64,000 bases of DNA from Oscillospiraceae bacterium (GTDB lineage Bacteria > Bacillota > Clostridia > Oscillospirales > CAG-272): the NCBI GenBank assembly GCA_015063625.1, contig SVTT01000007.1, positions 12,780 to 76,779 on the forward strand. The letters are read 5' to 3'. Numbering within the stretch: position 1 is the first letter of the stretch; every line of letters begins with the position of its first letter. Shown here piece by piece: positions 22,186-33,609 of this stretch. A program made the translations under genes and the position numbers. Under the pieces are notes generated by a model that was not told where the DNA came from, did not search any database, and saw only the letters and a program-made list of their open reading frames with translations.

Positions 22186-22392
22186 CGTCAATTCTCCTTT
22201 CATAAAACACATTGATGCCTATTACCATTATAAAACATCATTCTGCCAAAATCAAGCGGCATATACCGTTTTTTGCACATAATTTTGTTTAAGATACGGG
22301 CAATGTACAAAAGCCGAGCACGTGATAGCGGGATGTCCTTAACGGACAGATCATACTATCGCATGCTCGGCTTTTGCGTTGTGGGCTCGGCA

Positions 22393-23247
22393 TCAGAGAT
22401 CCGCGAAGGTTTTGATCGCCTTCTTGACGTCCTCCTTCATTGCCTTCATTGCGGCGAACTCCACATCGTGCAGATAGCTGGATCTGCCCGAGGCGATCTC
22501 CGCCTTGGCTGCCTCATAGCCTGCCTTGGACATGTAGGAATAATAGTTGATCTTGCGGATGCCCTCCTTGATGGCGGTCTTGAAGCCCTCCTCGGAAACG
22601 CCGCTGCCACCGTGCATGACAAGGGGCAGACCGGTTGCCAGAGCAACGGTTTTGACCACGTCAAAATCAAGCCTTGGCTGTGCGGTATAAAAGCCGTGTG
22701 CCGTGCCGAAGGCAATGGCAAGGGCGTCCACGCCGGTCTCCTTGCAGAAGGCGTGTGCCTCTGCGGGGTCGGTATAGTAGTCCTCTTCCTTCAGGGGCGC
22801 GGTGCTTCCCTCCTTGCTGCCTGCCTCACCCGTGACGAGTCTGCCAAGCTCTGCCTCCACGCTGACGCCCATGGCGTGTGCCATCTCGGTCACCTGCTTG
22901 GTAAGCTTAAGGTTTTCCTCATAAGGGAGGGCGGAGGCGTCGATCATCACCGAGGTGAAGCCGATGCGGAGCGCGCGGTAGATCATTTCAAGCGATGTGC
23001 CGTGGTCAAGGTGTACGCAAACGGGCACCTTGGCGTTCTTTGCGGCGGCGATCATGGCAGGGCCCACGATCGAGATGTCGTTATAGACGTTATGGACCTC
23101 TGCGTGTGCGATGATCACGGGCTGATTCAATTCTTCAGCCGCGGCGATCACTGCCTGCAGGCTGTCAAAGCCCGTGGCGTTGAACATGCCGATGGCGATC
23201 TTTTCGCGCTCGGCGATCTCAAGGATCTCTTTCAAATTTACTAACAT
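22393..23247 (-). CDS. Class II ketose-bisphosphate aldolase
   Basis: HLDH, VEAELG, GTAHG, HGGSG. Confidence 0.92.
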   Translation of the reverse strand: MLVNLKEILEIAEREKIAIGMFNATGFDSLQAVIAAAEELNQPVIIAHAEVHNVYNDISIVGPAMIAAAKNAKVPVCVHLDHGTSLEMIYRALRIGFTSVMIDASALPYEENLKLTKQVTEMAHAMGVSVEAELGRLVTGEAGSKEGSTAPLKEEDYYTDPAEAHAFCKETGVDALAIAFGTAHGFYTAQPRLDFDVVKTVALATGLPLVMHGGSGVSEEGFKTAIKEGIRKINYYSYMSKAGYEAAKAEIASGRSSYLHDVEFAAMKAMKEDVKKAIKTFADL

Positions 23248-23248
23248 A

Positions 23249-24217
23249 TCAGTTCCTCATCAAATCTTCCTTGCACGTGGGCAAGAATTTTTCTTCGCAA
23301 AGACCGCTTGTGGCATCCGCCTCGGAGAGCGATGCCACTGCTGCTGCCTCGGCAAGTATCAGGATCTCCTCGTCAGTGGCACCGCGTTCAATGGCGATCA
23401 GCGCGCCCGAGCAAAAGGCGTCACCCGCACCGGTTTTACCCTTGACGTAGCCGCGGGGCAGCTCGTAGGATGGGCGGACCGTCAGGCTGCCGTTTCGATT
23501 GCAGCAGATGCCGATCTCGGGCATATGGATAATGACGCGCTCGCGCACACCCATCGAGAGAAGCTTTTGTGCCATCTCCCCAAGATTGTCGGGGGTTGGA
23601 GCTATGCCGCAGAGCTTGCCTGCCTCCAGCTCGTTGATGATCAGATTGTCAACGAAGGTCAGACAGGGAATGACGCAGGTATAGCGATCCGAATTTTCAC
23701 TGACAAGGTCAATGGAGGTGGTCATGCCCCGCTTCTTGGCTTCCTCAAGGATCCTTCTCCCCTCTCCGCCGTCCACCTTCTCCAAAAGAAGGAAGTAGCC
23801 GAGGTGGAGCATTTTTACGGGCAGGCGATCCCACGGTACATCCTCCGCGCCAAAGGAGGCGCAGGCGCCGGGATAGGTGAAGAAGGTGCGCTGTCCCCCC
23901 ACGATGCTCATGACGTCGGTAAAGCTGGTCGACTCGGTGCTGCTGACCGTGACGGTGGATACGTCCACGCCCGCCTCCTCCATTTTGGCAACGGCAAGGC
24001 GACCGAGATCGTCGTCACCCACCTTGCCCACGGCATAGACGGGTAGCCGCGGGGCGATTTTTTTGATGCCGATGCCGTTGTTCGGTACCAGACCCCCGAG
24101 GGCGCGCCGTACCGAACGGATCTGTGTCAGCTCGCCGAGATCGGGGTAAGCCCCGATCTCGTAGATATTGTCGACAAGAAGCGTGCCGACCACTGCAATG
24201 CCTTTTTTCTCAGTCAT
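23249..24217 (-). CDS. PfkB family carbohydrate kinase
   Basis: GKVGDDDLG, NELEA, TGAGDAF. Confidence 0.9.
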   Translation of the reverse strand: MTEKKGIAVVGTLLVDNIYEIGAYPDLGELTQIRSVRRALGGLVPNNGIGIKKIAPRLPVYAVGKVGDDDLGRLAVAKMEEAGVDVSTVTVSSTESTSFTDVMSIVGGQRTFFTYPGACASFGAEDVPWDRLPVKMLHLGYFLLLEKVDGGEGRRILEEAKKRGMTTSIDLVSENSDRYTCVIPCLTFVDNLIINELEAGKLCGIAPTPDNLGEMAQKLLSMGVRERVIIHMPEIGICCNRNGSLTVRPSYELPRGYVKGKTGAGDAFCSGALIAIERGATDEEILILAEAAAVASLSEADATSGLCEEKFLPTCKEDLMRN

Positions 24218-24218
24218 A

Positions 24219-25166
24219 TCAGTTACACTCGGCAACCAGAGGACCTGCCAGCTCGTTCATGAAGAAGAGCTTGCCCGCCAGCGTGGGAATGTAGGAGGAG
24301 GTGATCCAGGGGGTCTTGCCGTAGCGCAGGGTCATCCAGAGGGACATGCCCTGCCACTGCATGCCGCGACCGAGGATGCCGTCAGCACCGCCGATGGCGT
24401 AGTCAGCCTGCAAAAACAGGCCGGGGCCGATGGTGTTGGCACGGCAGGGAACGAGGGTGGTGCGGGACTTGAAGCTGGTGAGGGCATTTTGCTCGACCGT
24501 CAGAGGATGGATCCTGGCGGCGATGCGGTAGGGTGCCTTCTCCCACTCTGCGGCGCTCTCGTAGTCAGCTGCAAAGGTGGGCTCCCAGAATGCGATATGG
24601 CACATTCTGCCGATGCCGTAGACCAGCACCAGCTTTGCACCCTCTGCCTTCAGAGCGGCGATCTTCTGGGGGTAGGTGGGGAGATTGTCCTTGGTGGCAA
24701 AGTTGCGCTGTGCGGCGGGCACGGTGAGCTCGCCAAGGGGATTGAAGAGGGCATTCTCCATCGCGTACTGGAAAGCACCGGGGTTGTCGGAGGCAAGGGT
24801 GTTGCCCTCGGCATCCGCCCACTCGTCCATATTGAAGGTATAGACGTGCTCGCAGGAGACCTTCCATTCCTTGAGGAAGTAGACGACCCACTTATACATG
24901 CCCATGGGACCGACGGGAAGGATCATGGCAAGCTTCTCGCCGCGCTCCTTTGCCAGCTTGATCTGAAGCGCCATCTCGTGACCCATATAGGTCTCAAACT
25001 CGGTCAGATTCTCACAGCGGACGGGGGTAAAGCCGTCGTTCCAGTGAGCCTGACGCTCGGTGATCTTCTCGGGTGCGTCGATGCACGCATCGATCTTGTC
25101 AAAATCCCAGCCTGCGGGATAAAAGCCCTCAAGTGCAGAGCCTTTTACGGTATCGTTGAATTTCAT
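24219..25166 (-). CDS. NagB/glucosamine-6-phosphate isomerase-like protein (divergent)
   Basis: [24 protein letters not shown] resembling NagB GIG.NGHIAFNEP. Confidence 0.7.
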
Positions 25167-25204
25167 CTTGATGTTCCTCCGTGTATCATATTGATGAGCT
25201 GCGA

Positions 25205-25909
25205 TCAGGGCAGCAGACGCTTAGTGGTACCCTTAAGGTATACCTGACACTGGCGGAAGCCCTCTGCGTAGTCGGCGCCGCACTGATAGCCGCGGTAACG
25301 GCTACAGGTCTTGACCATGTCGGGGAAGTCGATGTGGTCGTGGTCGCGCATCCAAACGATCTGGCTTTCGTGGCAATTGAGCATTCGGAGCTTGAGGTCG
25401 ATCTCCTCGGAGATGTCCACATACTCGGTGGGGACAAAGTTGACGCCCGCAAGGGTGTCCATGTAGTAGATGGGAACGAGCTTGGCAGCGTTCTTTTCCT
25501 TGCTTGCGTAGTTGGGCAGGGTGGCTGCAAAGCTGGCGTCGAACACAAGGCGGGATACCGCGGTGTGGTCGGGCATGTAGTCGTCGGGATTGTGGGTGAT
25601 GATGAAGTCGGGGTTTGCGTACTTGATCACGTCCACGATACGGTCGCGTGCTTCCTTGTTGTTGTCGAAAATGTCAAGATCGCTGAAGTCGGCACAGATG
25701 ACCTCAATGCCCGCAAGAGAGCCTGCCTTTTTCGCCTCGCCCTTTCGCATGACTGCCAGCTCGTCGGGCGGAATGATGACATGACCGAGGTTGCCGTTTG
25801 AAACGTGGCAGACGATGACTCTGTCACCTCTCTTGACGCATTTTGCCAGAGTGCCCGCGCAGGCGATCTCAATATCGTCGGGATGGGCACCGATTGCCAA
25901 TACATTCAT
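25205..25909 (-). CDS. PIG-L/LmbE family N-deacetylase
   Basis: AHPDDIE and PDH Zn-binding motifs. Confidence 0.9.
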
Positions 25910-26053
25910 GATAGTTCCTCCTTGCTTTTTTGATCGGAATATGCTACAACTTCATTTTAACTTCAACGCACGCATTACGCAATGGGCTTCAGTCGTGAAA
26001 AAGAGTAAAAAAATCTACTTGATTTTTTTCCGCTCTTATGTTATCCTTTAGGT

Positions 26054-26935
26054 ATGAGCGCGAAACGGTATTTCAGACATAAGCTGCAAAACCTCATTGT
26101 GGTCAGCAAGGTCGTCACCATTCACTACTTTGAATTTGATAAAAATTTCCGTGTGGAGGGGGAGGCACACGATTTCTGGGAGCTGGTGTATGCCGACAAG
26201 GAGAGCATCATTTGCACGGCAGACGGGAAAGAGATCGAGCTTGCCGAGGGAGAGGTGCTGTTCCATAAGCCCAATGAGTTTCACACGCTTGCCGCCAACG
26301 GCAAAAGGGCACCGAACGTCTTTATCATTTCCTTTGAATGCAAATCCGAGGCGATGCGCTTTTTCGAAAATCGAAGGCTGCGCCCCGAAAAGTCGTTTGT
26401 CGGGTTTATTTACAGCATTCTTGAGGAGTCAAAGAAGACCTTCGATATTCCGTATTCCACCCCCGAGCTGAAGAAGCTCAAGCTGCTTGCCTCGCCCACG
26501 CTGGGGGGAGAGCAGCTGATCAAAAATTATCTGGAGCTCTTCCTCATCAACCTGATGAGATCGCTGACCGAGACCGAACGGGGCAATGAGATCTTCTTGG
26601 CAAAGGAGGAGCTTGACAGCAAGCCCGTGAAGGACGTGCTGCGTATTCTCCGCGAGCACGTGGAGGGCGAGCTTTCGGTCGATGAGGTCTGTGCCGCCGT
26701 CGGGTATAGCCGCGCTTACGTTTTTAAGGAATTCAAGGCGTACTACATGGCGCTCAAGATCGAGCGCGCCAAGCAGTATTTACGGGAAGGAGAGCTGAGC
26801 GTCAAGCAGATCGCACTGCGTCTTTGCTTTGCCGATCCCAACTATTTTTCAAAGACCTTTAAGCGCCACACGGGCTTCTCTCCGGGTGTATATCAGAAGC
26901 GTTCCTTCGCGCACGGCGTGCGAAAAAAACAGTAA
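26054..26935 (+). CDS. AraC family regulator (cupin plus HTH), with an apparent short in-frame deletion
   Basis: HDFWELVY cupin; FADPNYFSKTFKRHTG second HTH. Confidence 0.88.
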   Translation: MSAKRYFRHKLQNLIVVSKVVTIHYFEFDKNFRVEGEAHDFWELVYADKESIICTADGKEIELAEGEVLFHKPNEFHTLAANGKRAPNVFIISFECKSEAMRFFENRRLRPEKSFVGFIYSILEESKKTFDIPYSTPELKKLKLLASPTLGGEQLIKNYLELFLINLMRSLTETERGNEIFLAKEELDSKPVKDVLRILREHVEGELSVDEVCAAVGYSRAYVFKEFKAYYMALKIERAKQYLREGELSVKQIALRLCFADPNYFSKTFKRHTGFSPGVYQKRSFAHGVRKKQ

Positions 26936-26963
26936 CAATATCCGAAAAAGGAGAATGAGTGAT

Positions 26964-27929
26964 ATGAAATTGACATTTGATCAGATCAAGAGCGTGACCG
27001 TCGGTGCTCTTTCGGTAAAAAGCACCGATAAGGGTATCGAATTTGACCGCTTTACCCCTTTGCAGGTCGCCGCATGGTATGCGCTTGAGCACGTGCTTGG
27101 CGAGCGCGCCGAAGCCACCACAGGCGTGCGTCTTGATTTTTATACCGATGCCAAGGAGCTCCGCCTTTCCTTTACATCCGGCAATAAGATCGAGGTGCTG
27201 GTGGATGGGCTCTTCCGTGAGCAGTTTTTGATGGAGGAGAAGAGAAAAGAGGGCGAACGCGCCGTGTTTGCGATCACCGATCTTTTGGGCAAGCCCCTTG
27301 AGAGAGCGCGTGTTACCGTAGTGCTTTCCTCCCATGACCGTGCCGTTCTGGATGCGCTTGAGCTGGTGGATGCCACCTATATCGAGCCTGTCAAGCATGA
27401 AAAAAAGATCCTCTTCATCGGCGACTCGATCACCCAGGGCTGGGCATCGCAGTATGATTCGCTTTCCTACGCGTGGCGCTTGACCAATTTCTTTGATGCC
27501 GACAGCATCATTCAGGGTGTGGGCGGAGGCTTTTACCACCGCAGCTTTCTTGATGATATCGATTTCGATCCCGAGATCGTCTTCCTCGCTTACGGCACCA
27601 ATGATTTCGGGCATTACCCCACCAAGGACGCCATGCGTGCCGAGGTGCGAGCCTTCCATGACGGTATTGCCGAGCGCTACGGCGACAAAAAGGTGTTCGT
27701 CATCTCTCCCATCTGGCGCGGACGGCAGGAGAAGCCGATGGGCAGCTTTGCCGAGTGCCGTGAGATCGTGATCGACGAGGCAAGGCGTCACGGCTTTGTC
27801 CACGTTGACGGACTCTCGCTGGTTCCCGCAGGCCCCTCCTTCTTCTTTGACCGCGACCTGCATCCCGACGATCTCGGCTTTGCCTTCTACGCCGAGCGTC
27901 TGCTGAAGGAGATCCTCCCCCAGCTTTGA
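26964..27929 (+). CDS. SGNH/GDSL hydrolase (acetylesterase-like)
   Basis: GDSITQG, GTND, DLHP blocks. Confidence 0.88.
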   Translation: MKLTFDQIKSVTVGALSVKSTDKGIEFDRFTPLQVAAWYALEHVLGERAEATTGVRLDFYTDAKELRLSFTSGNKIEVLVDGLFREQFLMEEKRKEGERAVFAITDLLGKPLERARVTVVLSSHDRAVLDALELVDATYIEPVKHEKKILFIGDSITQGWASQYDSLSYAWRLTNFFDADSIIQGVGGGFYHRSFLDDIDFDPEIVFLAYGTNDFGHYPTKDAMRAEVRAFHDGIAERYGDKKVFVISPIWRGRQEKPMGSFAECREIVIDEARRHGFVHVDGLSLVPAGPSFFFDRDLHPDDLGFAFYAERLLKEILPQL

Positions 27930-28302: not shown

Positions 28303-29064
28303 TCAGCGACCGCCGCGGCGACCGCCGCTTCTGCCACCGCCACTGCCGCCGCTTCTGCCGCCGGAGGAATTGCTTTGTACGCGCACACGTGTCACGTAGC
28401 TGCCCACGAAACGGTCCTCGCGCGCTGTGAGGCTCAGTCTGGCGTAGCGCTCCAGCGGATAGCTCTCGCCCCGTGCCCTTCTGCGGTAGGAAACGAGAAC
28501 GCAAACGATCGCGATCACTGCTGCGATCACACCCACGACCGCGCCCGTGATCACGGCGACCAGGGGCCTTGATCGCTGGTATTCGTAGGCGGCTTGATCA
28601 GCCAAGATCAGAAAGGCACGCGCACCCTCGTAGAGCCTGCCGTTCTTGATGGCGGAAAAAACGCTCAGATCGTCCAAAATGCGATCCACGTCGGCGTCCG
28701 AAAGCATTTTTTCGGCATCGTTGTAGGTATAAAGGTCATAGTAATAGGTGCTCTTACCCCCCGATCTGACCTCGCGGATCACAAGACCCACAGCGGCGGC
28801 GTATGGCTCGATACCGCAGATGTCAAAGACGTAGGAATCGGAGGGGTAGTCACCGGAGGAGTCGGCGGGATAGGTCATCACGAAGTAGTGAATATCCCTT
28901 GCCTGCAGCTGCTCACCGAGGATCATGAGAGCAAGTCCCTCGTCATCCGAGAAAAGCTGTGCCTGCTCGGTTACCGTTACCCTGCTGCTTTCAGCGGCAA
29001 AAACGGGGAGAGCCGCCGAGGAAAGGAGCAATAGCGCGAGAAGGAGTGTGATGATTTTTTTCAT
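28303..29064 (-). CDS. TPM-domain membrane protein (YdjH-like)
   Basis: Signal peptide, TM helix, Gly/Ser-rich tail SSGGRSGGSGGGR. Confidence 0.75.
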   Translation of the reverse strand: MKKIITLLLALLLLSSAALPVFAAESSRVTVTEQAQLFSDDEGLALMILGEQLQARDIHYFVMTYPADSSGDYPSDSYVFDICGIEPYAAAVGLVIREVRSGGKSTYYYDLYTYNDAEKMLSDADVDRILDDLSVFSAIKNGRLYEGARAFLILADQAAYEYQRSRPLVAVITGAVVGVIAAVIAIVCVLVSYRRRARGESYPLERYARLSLTAREDRFVGSYVTRVRVQSNSSGGRSGGSGGGRSGGRRGGR

Positions 29065-29077
29065 ACCGTCACCCCCC

Positions 29078-30166
29078 TTAAAGCAGGAAGAAGCGTACGA
29101 GTGCCGCCAGCACGCCCGCCACAGCACCGGTGATCGCACCGAGCAGGGAAAGGCGCTTTGCGCAAACGGGAAGCTCGCCATAGACCTTGCCCGTGTAGCC
29201 GTTCATGGCATAGGTATAGGTCTTGCCCTTGTGGTGGTAATTGAGAAGCCAGATGGGCATGAGGGTATATTCCCAGTGCAGACTGCGCGTCAGCATCCTG
29301 GGCTCCTGCGGCGTCACGGTGGCATAGCCGTCAATGGTATTCCGAAGCAGGGTGGTGGCATATCGGGTCATGCGCGCGCGTACGGCATCACGGACCTCTG
29401 CTTGCTCGATGTCGCGCTTTTTGGCAACGAAGCCCGACAGATATGCCATCGAAAAGTCCTGCAAGGAGTCGGACGGATAGGGAAGAATGCCGTCAAGCAT
29501 CGTACGGTCCTCCTCGCGGAGAGCAGGTGTTACGATGTCCTCAAAATGGATCTCACCCTCTCTGCGTACGTGGAAGTTGGAGGTTTCGGTATAACGGTAA
29601 TCTCCCTGGCGCCACGTCCGAACACGCGTAGCACGCGCCACCATGGCGGCGGAGGTGTCGGCATCGGTGACCCAGAAGGGGTAGTAGATGCCCGCAATAT
29701 GCTCCAGCTGCTTTTTGGAAAGGAAGGAACGGGGCACAAATTTTTTCTTGCCCGCAAATTCGAGGAAGCGCTTTTGCGCGGCTTCCTTGTCAAAGCGGAA
29801 GGGAATGATCTTGTGCGGCTTCATCTGCCCCGAAAGCCGTCCCGCAAGGATGACGGGGTTGTGGCAATAGGGGCACTCGGTGGCGGCGGTGGTGTCGTCT
29901 GCCACAACGTCCGCACCGCAGGCGGCGCAGTGATAAGTGCCCAGCTGCTCGCAGAACTCCTCGTCGGGGATCCCGCTCTCGTCGGCGGCGCGCTCCGCCG
30001 CCTCGGACGCCGCATCCTCCGCCGCACGGGCGGTTTCCGTGGCGGAAAGCTCCTGCTCGGTGAACTCCGAAAGGCAATATTCACAGCAGAATTTTTGCTT
30101 ATCTGGCGAAAAGGAAAGCCCTGCCGAGCAGTTTGGGCAATGGTATGTAACCGCAGTATTCGTCAT
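29078..30166 (-). CDS. Double Zn-ribbon membrane protein (YdjG-like)
   Basis: CPNC..CEYC and CAAC..CPYC; PIW; C-terminal TM helix. Confidence 0.75.
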   Translation of the reverse strand: MTNTAVTYHCPNCSAGLSFSPDKQKFCCEYCLSEFTEQELSATETARAAEDAASEAAERAADESGIPDEEFCEQLGTYHCAACGADVVADDTTAATECPYCHNPVILAGRLSGQMKPHKIIPFRFDKEAAQKRFLEFAGKKKFVPRSFLSKKQLEHIAGIYYPFWVTDADTSAAMVARATRVRTWRQGDYRYTETSNFHVRREGEIHFEDIVTPALREEDRTMLDGILPYPSDSLQDFSMAYLSGFVAKKRDIEQAEVRDAVRARMTRYATTLLRNTIDGYATVTPQEPRMLTRSLHWEYTLMPIWLLNYHHKGKTYTYAMNGYTGKVYGELPVCAKRLSLLGAITGAVAGVLAALVRFFLL

Positions 30167-30168
30167 AG

Positions 30169-31434
30169 TCAATCTCTCTTTTTGCCGCATTCGGCACAGA
30201 ATTTGCCGCGGTTTTTGGTGCCGCAGTCAGTGCAGAACCATGTGTCGTCAGCAGGCGCCTTGGTGCCGCATTCGGCACAGAATTTCCCACTGTTATGCTT
30301 ACCGCATTGGGGACACCTCCAGCCTTCCTCGGCAGTCGGCTTGGGTGCACCGCACTCGGCACAGAATTTTCCGCTGTTCTGCTTGCCACAGGCACAGGTC
30401 CAGCCCGCCTCGGCGGCAGACCTTTTCTCGGCATCACGTGCCATCTGAGCGCGGTTGGTCTCGGAGAATGCGCCAAAGCCCCCTGCGGCGCTCATGCCCA
30501 TTCCCATGCCCATAAAGGCGGTGGCAGAGCCGTTTGCATTGCTGCCCGCCGCTTCAATGCCACGCGCCATCGCACCCTGCACGTAGCCCTCGCGCACACC
30601 GGCATCACCCAGCATCGCGCCTTGATTGCGCATGTTGATCAGCTTCTTGGATTCCTCGTCATAGGAGATGTTGGCAAGACCCACAGAGAGCACCTCAAAG
30701 CCGCGCAGATTCTTGAAATCCTCGTCAAGCTCGGTCGCCATGTAGCGTGACAGCTCTCTTGATTTGCTTGCCACGTGCGAGATCCTGATGCCGTCGGCAG
30801 ACATCTTGTTGATGGCTGCCTGAAGTGCCTCGAGAAATTCGTCAAGATACTGCTCGTTGATGTCGGTGATCTCGACGCGGTCACGGTTGCGGGGGATCGC
30901 CTCGGCGTAGAATTTAAGGGGGTTGGTGATCTTGATGGAGTACGTGCCGAATGCGCGCAGGAAAAGCTCGGAATTGTAGAAATTGTCAAAGTAATTGACG
31001 GGGTTCTTGGTGCCGAACTTGATGCCCTTGATCTCCTGCAGGTTGATGAAGAACGCCTTTTGCGAGGAGGAGGGAACGCCGCCGTATTTGACGCGGCGGA
31101 ATGCCTCGGCAAGGCTGTCGCCGAACTCGCCCGCAAAGAGCGAGGGCATGGAGGAATTGTCCACCTTATAATAGCCCGGCTCTGCGGTGAAGTCCACCAC
31201 CTTGCCGCCATCCACCAGCATCATGAACTGGTTGTCGTAAACATGAATGATCGAGCCGTTTGAAATGGTGTCCGCCGTGCCTTTTTTGTTGGAATTCCGC
31301 TTGTCGTTCCGTCTGACCGGTACGCCCTTGGCAAACACGGTGGTGTCGCCCATGCTGTCGGCTTCGATGACCTCCTGCCAAGTGTCGGCAAGACCGCCGC
31401 CCATGGCAGAAAGGACTGCTTTGATAATGCCCAT
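30169..31434 (-). CDS. SPFH-domain protein with C-terminal Zn ribbons (YdjI-like)
   Basis: KFGTKNP, LRAFGTYS, three W.C..CG..N.GKFCAECG repeats. Confidence 0.8.
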   Translation of the reverse strand: MGIIKAVLSAMGGGLADTWQEVIEADSMGDTTVFAKGVPVRRNDKRNSNKKGTADTISNGSIIHVYDNQFMMLVDGGKVVDFTAEPGYYKVDNSSMPSLFAGEFGDSLAEAFRRVKYGGVPSSSQKAFFINLQEIKGIKFGTKNPVNYFDNFYNSELFLRAFGTYSIKITNPLKFYAEAIPRNRDRVEITDINEQYLDEFLEALQAAINKMSADGIRISHVASKSRELSRYMATELDEDFKNLRGFEVLSVGLANISYDEESKKLINMRNQGAMLGDAGVREGYVQGAMARGIEAAGSNANGSATAFMGMGMGMSAAGGFGAFSETNRAQMARDAEKRSAAEAGWTCACGKQNSGKFCAECGAPKPTAEEGWRCPQCGKHNSGKFCAECGTKAPADDTWFCTDCGTKNRGKFCAECGKKRD

Positions 31435-31782
31435 GATCAGTATCCTCCGTTGATGTATTGATAAGATTTTTCCGAGGGGGGTGAGCCATAATCAAAAAGC
31501 GGAGCAGCCTTTCGGCGCTCCGCTGTCGGCGCGAAGCGCGCCTTTTGCTGTTTTTTCAAAACCCGCCAAGCCGTGTAGACCGAAAAGAGAGAACCCTATA
31601 TTACAAGGGGGTGCCCTGCCGTGCGCTTTACTGCTCCCAGCGTCCTTTGTCCCATCGAGACAAGTCAATCGAAGTGGGGAAAGGGAGGTCTGCAAACCGC
31701 GCTCGGACTCTCTCCGGGCTCCATGTCATGTGTGTCGGCTCCACCAAACGGTCATCACGCACTCAGCAGGCGGAAATCAAAA

Positions 31783-32109
31783 TTACTTGTCGTTCTTTTC
31801 TTCGGCGTCGTAATCGATCTCGTCAAAGAGAATGTCGTCAAAGTAGTCGGCAATGTCGTCAAATTCGTCGTCGTCCTCGACCGAAACAAGGGAGGTCTCG
31901 CCGTTTTCGACCACGCTCTTGAGGATCACGTAGCCGCACTCGGCATCCTCGCTTTCATAGTCCTCTGCAGGCGCAAAGGCATAGTACTCGGTACCGTTCT
32001 TTTCGCAGGTGCCGAGCAGGATAAATTCGTGCTCGTTGCCCTCCTCGTCGGACAGCAGATAGACCTCTACTTCCTCCTCGGGCAGGTTGTTCTTTTCTTT
32101 TTCGTTCAT
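31783..32109 (-). CDS. DUF1292 family acidic protein
   Basis: Small and acidic; L.DEEGNEHEF...YYAF...VEDDDEFD pattern. Confidence 0.8.
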   Translation of the reverse strand: MNEKEKNNLPEEEVEVYLLSDEEGNEHEFILLGTCEKNGTEYYAFAPAEDYESEDAECGYVILKSVVENGETSLVSVEDDDEFDDIADYFDDILFDEIDYDAEEKNDK

Positions 32110-32202
32110 GTGATGTCACCTCGCTTACAGTATCATTCTATCCGATTTTTCCCCAAAAGTCAAGGGGAATGCAATGGATTCCTGAATTTTACGGTTTGGT
32201 GC

Positions 32203-33609
32203 TCAGGGCAGCACCGAGAAGGGCAGAACGTCGGCAAAGCTGCTTTCGCTGCTGAGCCCCTCCTTGCCAATGATATAGTACAAATGTTCATTGTTGTCAG
32301 TTTCCACGAGCGCGAGCGCATAGCCGTCCTTGAAGAAGGGGGTCAGGAGAAGGATGCTTTCAAGCTCGGGCTCGATCACGGGGGTTCCGGTTTTATCGAT
32401 ATAGGCGTAGACCGATTCGGTACCGACCGTTTCCAATTCGACCGCGGCATAACCGTTCATGAAGGTTCCCGCCTGCTTGAAGGAGGGCTCGATCACGAAT
32501 GTGCCGCTTTTGTCGATATAGCCCCAGGCTTCCTTTTCGGCGTCGGAGCAGACGGCGGCAAGTCCGTTTTCGGCAAAGGAGAGCGCCTTGTCGAATTTCA
32601 GATCGACCTTGACGTCGCCCTTTTTGTTGATGAAGCCGTATTTGTCCTTCAGCTTGACCAGCGCGAGATCCTGGGCAAAGGATTCGGCATAGTCGTAGGT
32701 GGGGGTGACCACGTAGATGCCCTCGCGGTCGATAAAGCCGTACTTGCCGTCCTTGGCAACCAGTGCCAATCCGTTGTCGGTGAAGGGCTCGATGAGATCA
32801 AACTGCGGATTGACCTCCCACTCACCCTTTTGATTGATCAGACCCCATTTGCCGAAGGCGTAAACGGCGGCGAAGCCGTTGTGGTCAAAGTCGACGGCGG
32901 CGTCAAAGCGAGGATCGATCACGTAGATGCCGCGGGTGTTGATATAGCCGTACTTGCCGCCGATCTGCACGAGGGCAAGACCCTCCTCGGCAAAGGGGCG
33001 CGCAAAATCGAACTGCGGATTGATGACCATATCTCCCTTTTTGTTGATATAGCCCCAGGAGCCGTTTGATTTCACTGCGGCAAAGCCGCTGTCGTCAAAG
33101 CTTGCGGCTTCTTCAAATTCGGCGGGAATGACAAGCGTGCCCTCCCTGTCGATATAGCCCCATTTCTTGCTGCTGATCTCTACGGCGGCAAGACCGTTTT
33201 CAGCAAATTCATATGCGGTGAGATATTTTGCCTTGATCTGGAAGGTGCCGTTCGGATCCACGTATCCCCAACGGAGATCGCCGTTGTCGTTGTGGACGGC
33301 GACAGGGAGCAGACCCCCGTTGAAGAGGGGAAGATCAACCTCGCCTTTTTTGGGGCTGCTGACCGAAAACAGGATCACGAGGAAGACGCTGATGCCCACC
33401 AGAAGAAAGAGCGTGATGGCGGCGGGGATAGGAAAGAAGCCGCGCTTCTTTTTCGGCGGCTCGGCAGGGGGGGCTTGCTCGGTCTGCTGATCTGCCGTAT
33501 GCCGGGCAGGCGCTTGCTCAGCATCAACCCTTTCTCCCTCGACGGCAGCCGTGTCTGCCACAGTCGGATCGTCAGGGGCGCTGTTTTGATGCATCGGTTC
33601 TTGGTTCAT
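32203..33609 (-). CDS. WG (KWG)-repeat surface protein
   Basis: About nine F...GLA.V...K(W/Y)G(Y/F)I(D/N)..G repeats after one TM helix. Confidence 0.9.
   Translation of the reverse strand: MNQEPMHQNSAPDDPTVADTAAVEGERVDAEQAPARHTADQQTEQAPPAEPPKKKRGFFPIPAAITLFLLVGISVFLVILFSVSSPKKGEVDLPLFNGGLLPVAVHNDNGDLRWGYVDPNGTFQIKAKYLTAYEFAENGLAAVEISSKKWGYIDREGTLVIPAEFEEAASFDDSGFAAVKSNGSWGYINKKGDMVINPQFDFARPFAEEGLALVQIGGKYGYINTRGIYVIDPRFDAAVDFDHNGFAAVYAFGKWGLINQKGEWEVNPQFDLIEPFTDNGLALVAKDGKYGFIDREGIYVVTPTYDYAESFAQDLALVKLKDKYGFINKKGDVKVDLKFDKALSFAENGLAAVCSDAEKEAWGYIDKSGTFVIEPSFKQAGTFMNGYAAVELETVGTESVYAYIDKTGTPVIEPELESILLLTPFFKDGYALALVETDNNEHLYYIIGKEGLSSESSFADVLPFSVLP

Follow-up and report, generated by a model that had tools for sequence, protein, structure and literature searches.

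We describe a four-gene operon in a 64,000-nucleotide (nt) stretch of contig SVTT01000007.1 (hereafter, the window) from the assembly GCA_015063625.1 of an Oscillospiraceae bacterium, which probably mediates the AraC-induced catabolism of an N-acetylated amino sugar, with uptake in unphosphorylated form and phosphorylation delayed to a late step. The operon encodes, in the order of transcription, a zinc N-deacetylase of the PIG-L/LmbE family, a divergent NagB homologue (hereafter, the NagB-like protein), a PfkB-family sugar kinase and a class II aldolase. Among the major sources of carbon and nitrogen in the gut are the amino sugars of mucin, chitin, bacterial walls and capsules; the well-studied bacterial routes for their utilization, nag and aga, pass through hexosamine-6-phosphates.

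The four-gene arrangement is widely conserved. In a scan of one genome per prokaryote species, relatives of the NagB-like protein were encoded in at least 587 stretches. The locus counts given here refer to the best 80 of these (77–91% identity to the NagB-like protein), a gene being scored only if the contig extends far enough, hence the denominators below 80. The PIG-L gene lies directly upstream of the NagB-like gene in 70/75 loci and the PfkB gene directly downstream in 57/75, a class II aldolase gene is located downstream in 37/68, and a divergently oriented AraC gene accompanies the module in 52/67. Any match to an aldolase was detected in 42 loci, 15 of which encode the window's type and 27 a second type, ~42% identical to it. 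Because the arrangement recurs in the 80 fetched loci, out of at least 587 matching stretches, it is not due to chance, and the conserved core consists of PIG-L, NagB-like and PfkB, with or without the aldolase, under AraC. The original prediction of a catabolic module for an N-acylated amino sugar had been staked on co-occurrence of the genes in other genomes, and both the co-occurrence and the AraC-linked module are borne out. By contrast, its suggestion that the sugar is possibly O-acetylated finds no comparative support, given that the SGNH esterase encoded next to the AraC regulator is found at any place in the locus in 0/80 cases. A short-chain dehydrogenase/reductase (SDR) gene beyond the operon terminator is similarly scarce (1/80), and none of the 80 loci was found to contain the flavin reductase adjoining it. 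Because of this lack of linkage, the SGNH esterase and SDR genes fall outside the module and are its chance neighbours, the SGNH protein being lineage-specific; all three candidates were rejected as module parts, the SDR gene also having its own promoter-like site (22255-22227).

The NagB-like protein has no Pfam match, and PF01182 gave no hit to it even at an E-value of 10. It matches the TIGR00502 (nagB) model with an E-value of 8e-12 and 45 bits, far under the 236.9-bit cut-off, and automatic annotation labels it 'glucosamine-6-phosphate isomerase'. When the family profile was compared with NagB chains in the PDB, the E-value was 1.8e-18. According to the AlphaFold2 model (mean predicted local distance difference test score, pLDDT, 95.2), the protein has a NagB-type alpha/beta fold, preceded by an N-terminal extension of ~55 amino acids (aa). 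The top Foldseek matches of the model are all NagB proteins (Borrelia, Vibrio, Escherichia coli, human and Bacillus subtilis), with target-normalized template modelling (TM) scores of 0.73–0.84 at ~20% identity. The NagB-like protein is thus a true homologue of NagB and AgaI. The family is narrow and outside the reach of all Pfam models, with 644 clusters (at 50% identity) at E ≤1e-3, of which 101 reach 1e-30; look-alike clusters in the ESM Atlas are unnamed and commonest in Bacillota and Planctomycetota.

We aligned the NagB-like family, counting 64 orthologues, with E. coli NagB, AgaI and the canonical 242-aa NagB encoded elsewhere in the same genome. The equivalents of D72, H143 and E148 (E. 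coli NagB numbering) are retained in the NagB-like protein: NMDEW is the counterpart of NMDEY and occurs in 64/64 orthologues, and HIAFWEP is that of HIAFNEP and occurs in 63/64; Asp141 of NagB is replaced by Met. Whereas these catalytic residues are kept, the three elements that serve as ligands of the substrate 6-phosphate in the E. coli NagB structures are lost: in the T41-G-G-T44 loop, T41 is replaced by V and G43-T44 are deleted, so that the loop is two residues shorter, R172 is replaced by T in 60/64 orthologues and K208 by G in 61/64. All three elements are conserved in E. coli NagB, AgaI and the genome's own NagB, R172 and K208 also in the Borrelia and human NagB chains, and R172 in the Vibrio chain. 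Throughout the wider NagB-like family, there is no invariant Arg or Lys. Judging from these alignments, the NagB-like protein is devoid of every phosphate ligand of NagB, and the simplest reading is that it would be a NagB-type isomerase-deaminase with a phosphate-free substrate.

The aldolase matches PF01116 with 290.7 bits, and its zinc ligands and dihydroxyacetone phosphate (DHAP) site (HLDHG, AHG, HGGSG) are conserved in an alignment that includes E. coli FbaA, KbaY and YdjI, the genome's housekeeping fructose-bisphosphate aldolase (FBA; contig C25) and 36 locus-linked aldolases. It is 40% identical to YdjI and 34% to KbaY. FbaA, KbaY and the housekeeping FBA share the DPR segment (FbaA Arg331, with Lys325 nearby) and the S/T-x-G loop (FbaA Ser61); FbaA S61, K325 and R331 are the C6-phosphate ligands. 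The DPR segment is missing from the window's aldolase, from YdjI and from 35/36 locus-linked aldolases, and in place of S-x-G the locus-linked aldolases have A-E-V and YdjI has G-T-G. The PfkB kinase (PF00294, 92.6 bits against a cut-off of 25.8; GAGD anion-hole motif in TGAGDAF) attains no NCBIfam equivalog, scoring 81 bits with ribokinase (cut-off 299.65) and 46.6 with IolC (cut-off 300). Its first PDB match is the ribokinase 6ilr, followed by YdjH (3h49), and it is 25% identical to E. coli YdjH. RefSeq names YdjH a ketose 1-kinase and YdjI a ketose-1-phosphate aldolase (octuluronate). By these comparisons, the kinase/aldolase pair of the operon appears to resemble pairs of ketose 1-kinase and ketose-1-phosphate aldolase (YdjH/YdjI, IolC/IolJ) more closely than LacC/KbaY.

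The PIG-L protein matches PF02585 with 95.4 bits (cut-off 28.2) and contains both zinc-site motifs, HPDD (in AHPDDIE) and PDH (in MPDH). Its best PDB matches are BshB1 (6p2t), the archaeal diacetylchitobiose deacetylases 8bgn and 3wl4, and BC1534 (2ixd), and these nearest enzymes act on unphosphorylated derivatives of N-acetylglucosamine (GlcNAc). BshB1 (TIGR04001) is also the top NCBIfam match, which might point to a BshB-like deacetylase in bacillithiol-type biosynthesis or thiol metabolism rather than in sugar catabolism. However, the score of 135.2 bits is under the 182.5-bit equivalog cut-off, for which reason we rejected this role; it is made still more improbable, to the point of being hardly credible, by the co-transcription of the PIG-L gene with kinase and aldolase genes under AraC control, and by the sugar transporters and epimerases linked in related loci.

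Taken together, the gene families, the fold, the retained catalytic residues, the lost phosphate ligands, the operon structure and the synteny, all of which are observed, can be accommodated in a four-step scheme, in which the sequence of the reactions, the hydroxyl targeted by the kinase and the sugar itself are inferred. The PIG-L protein would first take the N-acetyl group off a free N-acetylhexosamine (HexNAc) or a small glycoside thereof. The NagB-fold enzyme would then perform NagB chemistry on the unphosphorylated 2-amino-2-deoxy-aldose, whereby the His opens the ring, the Asp abstracts the C2 proton and the imine is hydrolysed, yielding ammonia and a free 2-ketose. The PfkB kinase would phosphorylate the primary hydroxyl adjoining the keto group, and the resulting ketose-1-phosphate would be cleaved by the YdjI-like aldolase into DHAP and an unphosphorylated aldehyde, for example, glyceraldehyde. 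We consider the chances of this complete scheme being correct to be roughly even.

Alternatively, the operon could follow the logic of aga or nag, with a HexNAc-6-phosphate supplied by an unlinked kinase, deacetylated by PIG-L and converted by the NagB-like protein to a ketose-6-phosphate, which PfkB would phosphorylate at C1 for the aldolase to split the 1,6-bisphosphate; in a variant, PfkB would be the hexosamine 6-kinase and a housekeeping PfkA would make the bisphosphate. The four families indeed parallel AgaA, AgaI, a PfkB-type kinase and KbaY, the aldolase clears a ketose-bisphosphate aldolase model, and the ROK kinase and the two PfkA genes found elsewhere in the genome could fill the missing steps. 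Furthermore, positions 37-180 of the glucosamine-6-phosphate deaminase-like model NF002557 (PRK02122; 653 positions) match the NagB-like protein and positions 373-411 the PIG-L protein, albeit weakly (27.8 and 16 bits, respectively, against a cut-off of 384). Such a pathway is nevertheless difficult to reconcile with the loss of all three phosphate-binding elements from the NagB-like protein, with an aldolase that is devoid of the DPR arginine and the S-x-G loop kept in FbaA, KbaY and the housekeeping FBA, and with the unphosphorylated substrates of the nearest PIG-L enzymes of known structure. Moreover, the assembly, which is 93.7% complete, was found to lack phosphotransferase system (PTS) enzyme I as well as EIIC of the glucose and mannose types, so that sugars probably enter the cell unphosphorylated. 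The pathway would also require an unlinked kinase; related loci encode SSF, MFS and ATP-binding cassette (ABC) transporters as well as an N-acylglucosamine 2-epimerase. We therefore regard an aga-like pathway as unlikely, although it retains a real share of the probability, and the 6-phosphate and 1,6-bisphosphate chemistry implied by the original prediction fits the operon poorly, the aldolase being nearer to YdjI than to KbaY.

The reading in which deacylation precedes deamination gains further backing from loci where the NagB-like gene adjoins a different N-deacylase, namely, a ceramidase-like amidase within an ABC transporter operon (locus L104 in our numbering), an M20 N-deacylase (L030) or, next to a NagB-like paralogue (24–29% identical), Amidohydro_1 (L109). 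Elsewhere in the phylum, other families have the PIG-L/NagB-like pair without the kinase and the aldolase (L102, L103 and L107), in the neighbourhood of ABC transporter, Gfo/Idh/MocA and TIM-barrel genes, and at L101 the NagB-like gene adjoins an N-acylglucosamine 2-epimerase gene. Among 401 sampled genomes of the phylum, 12 have a match at E ≤1e-25, 8 of these at <1e-90. One could argue instead that the NagB-fold protein is not a deaminase but serves as an isomerase, epimerase or lactonase for a sugar that has no amino group or is still acylated: 6-phosphogluconolactonases belong to the NagB superfamily and are among the lower Foldseek matches, D141 of NagB is replaced, and Gfo/Idh/MocA oxidoreductases, which could make lactones or keto-sugars, are encoded by an extra gene beside the NagB-like one in 13 loci, frequently inserted between it and the PIG-L gene. 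However, the NMDE(W/Y) and HIAFWEP motifs are of the NagB type, not of the lactonase type, the best structural matches are NagB proteins without exception, and the linkage of the gene to four kinds of N-deacylase across lineages is sensible only if the following step uses a free amine. A non-deaminase role thus appears improbable.

Several of these loci deserve a closer description. The NagB-like proteins of L104 (181-6313) and L105, from a different family of the same phylum, form a clade ~33–38% identical to the window's protein, and their genes are located between those for ABC permeases and those for a neutral-ceramidase-like amidase and a solute-binding protein; here, the logic of deacylation followed by deamination recurs with a different amidase. 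The paralogous cluster of L109 (6696-17464) encodes Amidohydro_1 (NagA-like), Gfo/Idh/MocA, the NagB-like paralogue, a TIM-barrel epimerase, an FAD oxidase with a CCG iron-sulfur subunit, a DPR-less class II aldolase, PfkB, KduI/IolB and an FGGY kinase, and looks like a hybrid of amino-sugar and inositol/uronate pathways. At L102 (199-2726), a locus that is 54% identical, the operon opens with a sulfoquinovose-isomerase-like gene (312 bits with the SftI model, below cut-off), followed by one for an enolase-superfamily sugar-acid dehydratase, ahead of the ABC transporter, which hints that some versions of the module act on sugar acids or 6-substituted sugars.

The candidate AraC operator upstream of the operon promoter, with the core AGTAGATTWTTTTACTCTTTTT, is conserved in 12 orthologous araC/PIG-L intergenic regions. 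When the whole assembly was scanned with its position weight matrix, the operon site scored 40.1 and the next best place 19.7; thus, the regulon seems to consist of the operon alone. The AraC proteins encoded beside the closest NagB-like orthologues (88–92% identity; L003–L006) are only 34–37% identical to that of the window, whereas modules a little more distant (L010, L012, L013 and L028) come with AraC proteins ~60% identical to the window's, indicating that regulator and enzymes have been reshuffled.

Some observations weigh against a pathway in which phosphorylation comes last. The assignments of the phosphate ligands in NagB and of the C6-phosphate ligands in FbaA could not be confirmed in a literature search. 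The close clade of NagB-like proteins retains a few basic residues (R241 before ANT and the R in G-RG), which could form a new anion site. The aldolase exceeds the cut-off of TIGR00167, 'ketose-bisphosphate aldolase' (241.8 against 215.6 bits). In 7/80 loci, the position of the window's aldolase is occupied by a gene for an MtlD-like dehydrogenase, with mannitol-1-phosphate 5-dehydrogenase as the best match, and this gene is unaccounted for by the simple scheme. Finally, the operator scan of the whole assembly placed no transporter in the regulon.

As for the sugar, candidates include N-acetylgalactosamine (GalNAc), N-acetylmannosamine, a 6-deoxy-HexNAc and a HexNAc-uronate. GlcNAc is less likely because the genome encodes a canonical NagA/NagB pair elsewhere (NagA, scoring over its cut-off, on contig C16 and NagB on C21); for the same reason, the module is an addition to the standard GlcNAc-6-phosphate route, not its replacement, and probably serves another sugar. 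The accessory genes of related loci, which encode Gfo/Idh/MocA oxidoreductases, xylose-isomerase-like TIM epimerases, the MtlD-like dehydrogenase, N-acylglucosamine 2-epimerase and the enolase-superfamily dehydratase, suggest interconversion of epimers or keto-sugars; zinc alcohol dehydrogenase, carbohydrate esterase family 4 (CE4) deacetylase and SSF and MFS transporter genes are further extras at some loci. A DUF4838 protein, accessory in 6 loci, has no PDB or NCBIfam match and hence gives no clue to a glycoside. Naming the sugar from the accessory genes was abandoned given that the hints fix no single sugar, in keeping with the original prediction that its identity cannot be read from the sequence. 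In the region C16:42434-44535 (equivalent to L112:8435-10536, minus strand), the canonical NagA gene adjoins a gene for a PfkB kinase that exceeds the 1-phosphofructokinase equivalog cut-off (307 against 292 bits), in a genome where no PTS that would make fructose-1-phosphate was found; this kinase might take over the ketose-1-phosphates of the module or act on tagatose-6-phosphate.

The window is part of one contig (C24) of a 28-contig, 1.76-Mb assembly, and the relatives of the source genome, uncultured Clostridia, come from the guts of ruminants and other animals. All six genes named in the original prediction were recovered as open reading frames (ORFs) at the positions given there, including the PIG-L-type deacetylase and the divergent NagB homologue. 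The predicted tight packing holds, with gaps of 38, 1 and 1 nt between consecutive operon genes, as does the lack of a transporter or a second (hexosamine) kinase in the operon. Of the two genes described as divergent from the operon, araC is so, whereas the SGNH gene simply follows araC on the same strand, 20 nt downstream. The coordinates are collected in the table.

Table. Features of the operon and its immediate surroundings (positions in the window)
Feature	Positions	Strand	Details
PIG-L/LmbE-family zinc N-deacetylase	25909-25205	-	234 aa; first operon gene; PF02585
NagB-fold protein	25166-24219	-	315 aa; no Pfam match
PfkB-family sugar kinase	24217-23249	-	322 aa from ATG at 24217; PF00294
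Class II (zinc) aldolase	23247-22393	-	284 aa; PF01116
AraC-family regulator	26054-26935	+	293 aa; PF12833 and PF00165 in C-terminal part
SGNH/GDSL protein	ORF 26829-27929, likely start 26955	+	same strand as araC
Intrinsic terminator	22300-22377	-	from RNA fold
Candidate AraC operator	25995-26024	-	upstream of operon promoter; core AGTAGATTWTTTTACTCTTTTT

The start of the PfkB gene given in the table is the likely one because the alternative listed start, a TTG at 24235, would make it overlap the upstream NagB-like gene. The NagB-like/PfkB and PfkB/aldolase junctions both read AAC-TGA-T-ATG, and the ten bases at 24215-24224 and 23245-23254 on the minus strand are identical (AACTGATATG), comprising a stop codon, one base and a start codon, which suggests translational coupling of a repeated design. 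Directly 3' of the aldolase stop codon, the fold of the RNA from 22290-22392 (minus strand) is a long hairpin (dG of -46.1 kcal/mol, z of -8.2), equalled in stability by 0/200 shuffles and followed by UUUUGU. The SGNH/GDSL protein (26955-27929) has an N-terminal part of ~150 aa of unknown family, and its gene is possibly co-transcribed with araC. The neighbours farther downstream (28303-33609) appear unrelated to the module; they encode an SPFH/Band-7 protein with a zinc ribbon (30169-31434), two proteins without a clear family and a nine-repeat WG-repeat protein (32203-33609).

A full-text literature search yielded no paper on the module or its enzymes. New here are the loss of phosphate ligands in the NagB-like protein and the aldolase, the context of a genome in which canonical NagA and NagB, but no PTS, were found, the removal of the SGNH and SDR genes from the module, and the candidate operator. 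To our knowledge, no isomerase-deaminase for unphosphorylated 2-amino-2-deoxy sugars has been known, and we put forward, tentatively and with somewhat less than even confidence, that the NagB-like family would be the first, founding a 'phosphorylate-last' pathway that bypasses the hexosamine-6-phosphates of nag and aga. If free amino sugars are indeed the substrate, the label 'glucosamine-6-phosphate isomerase' would be wrong for thousands of sequences, and a new enzyme activity would be joined by a new pathway topology. This would concern a family with hundreds of species-level members in gut Clostridia and with look-alike Atlas clusters that are commonest in Planctomycetota, and metabolic models of abundant uncultured Clostridia of the ruminant and human gut would gain a substrate. 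The module proteins are small, soluble and easily expressed, so the question is directly testable.

The chemical logic of the module, in which an amino sugar is de-N-acetylated, deaminated and isomerized to a ketose, phosphorylated and then split by a class II aldolase, resembles that of the E. coli aga/gam (GalNAc and galactosamine) and nag (GlcNAc) systems, with AgaA/NagA, AgaI/AgaS/NagB, PfkA/PfkB and KbaY/GatY. However, the module differs from these in that its deacetylase is of the PIG-L type instead of an amidohydrolase, its operon encodes only one kinase, and the phosphate ligands of NagB and the C6-phosphate ligands of the aldolase are absent; the intermediates probably are unphosphorylated up to the ketose stage. 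Neither a PTS in this genome nor a dedicated kinase in the operon that would supply HexNAc-6-phosphate was found. The Thermococcales chitin route (Dac, glucosamine kinase and GlmD) is comparable in that a PIG-L-family enzyme deacetylates an unphosphorylated GlcNAc-type sugar in the first cytoplasmic step; there, phosphorylation of the free amino sugar precedes deamination, which falls to a SIS-domain enzyme, and no aldolase is involved. The layout of the NF002557 profile is consistent with a fused NagB-PIG-L architecture, which is not known to have been assayed, whereas in the module the two parts are encoded by separate genes and the NagB-like part belongs to a different subfamily.

The second half of the module is best compared with two other systems. 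In E. coli, YdjH (L-glycero-L-galacto-octuluronate 1-kinase) and YdjI (octuluronate-1-phosphate aldolase) similarly pair a PfkB kinase with a DPR-less class II aldolase encoded next to it, but the distal pocket differs (A-E-V in the module, G-T-G in YdjI), the kinases share little sequence identity, and the ydj cluster, the substrate of which is a sugar acid, includes neither a deacetylase nor a deaminase. In the myo-inositol pathway, PfkB-type IolC phosphorylates beside the keto group and the class II aldolase IolJ yields DHAP and an unphosphorylated aldehyde. By contrast, the window's operon contains no IolB, IolD or IolE genes, for which reason an inositol pathway was rejected for it, and its kinase matches the IolC model weakly. 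The two themes meet in the paralogous cluster of L109, where genes for PfkB and a DPR-less aldolase accompany an IolB-like gene and that of a NagB-like paralogue.

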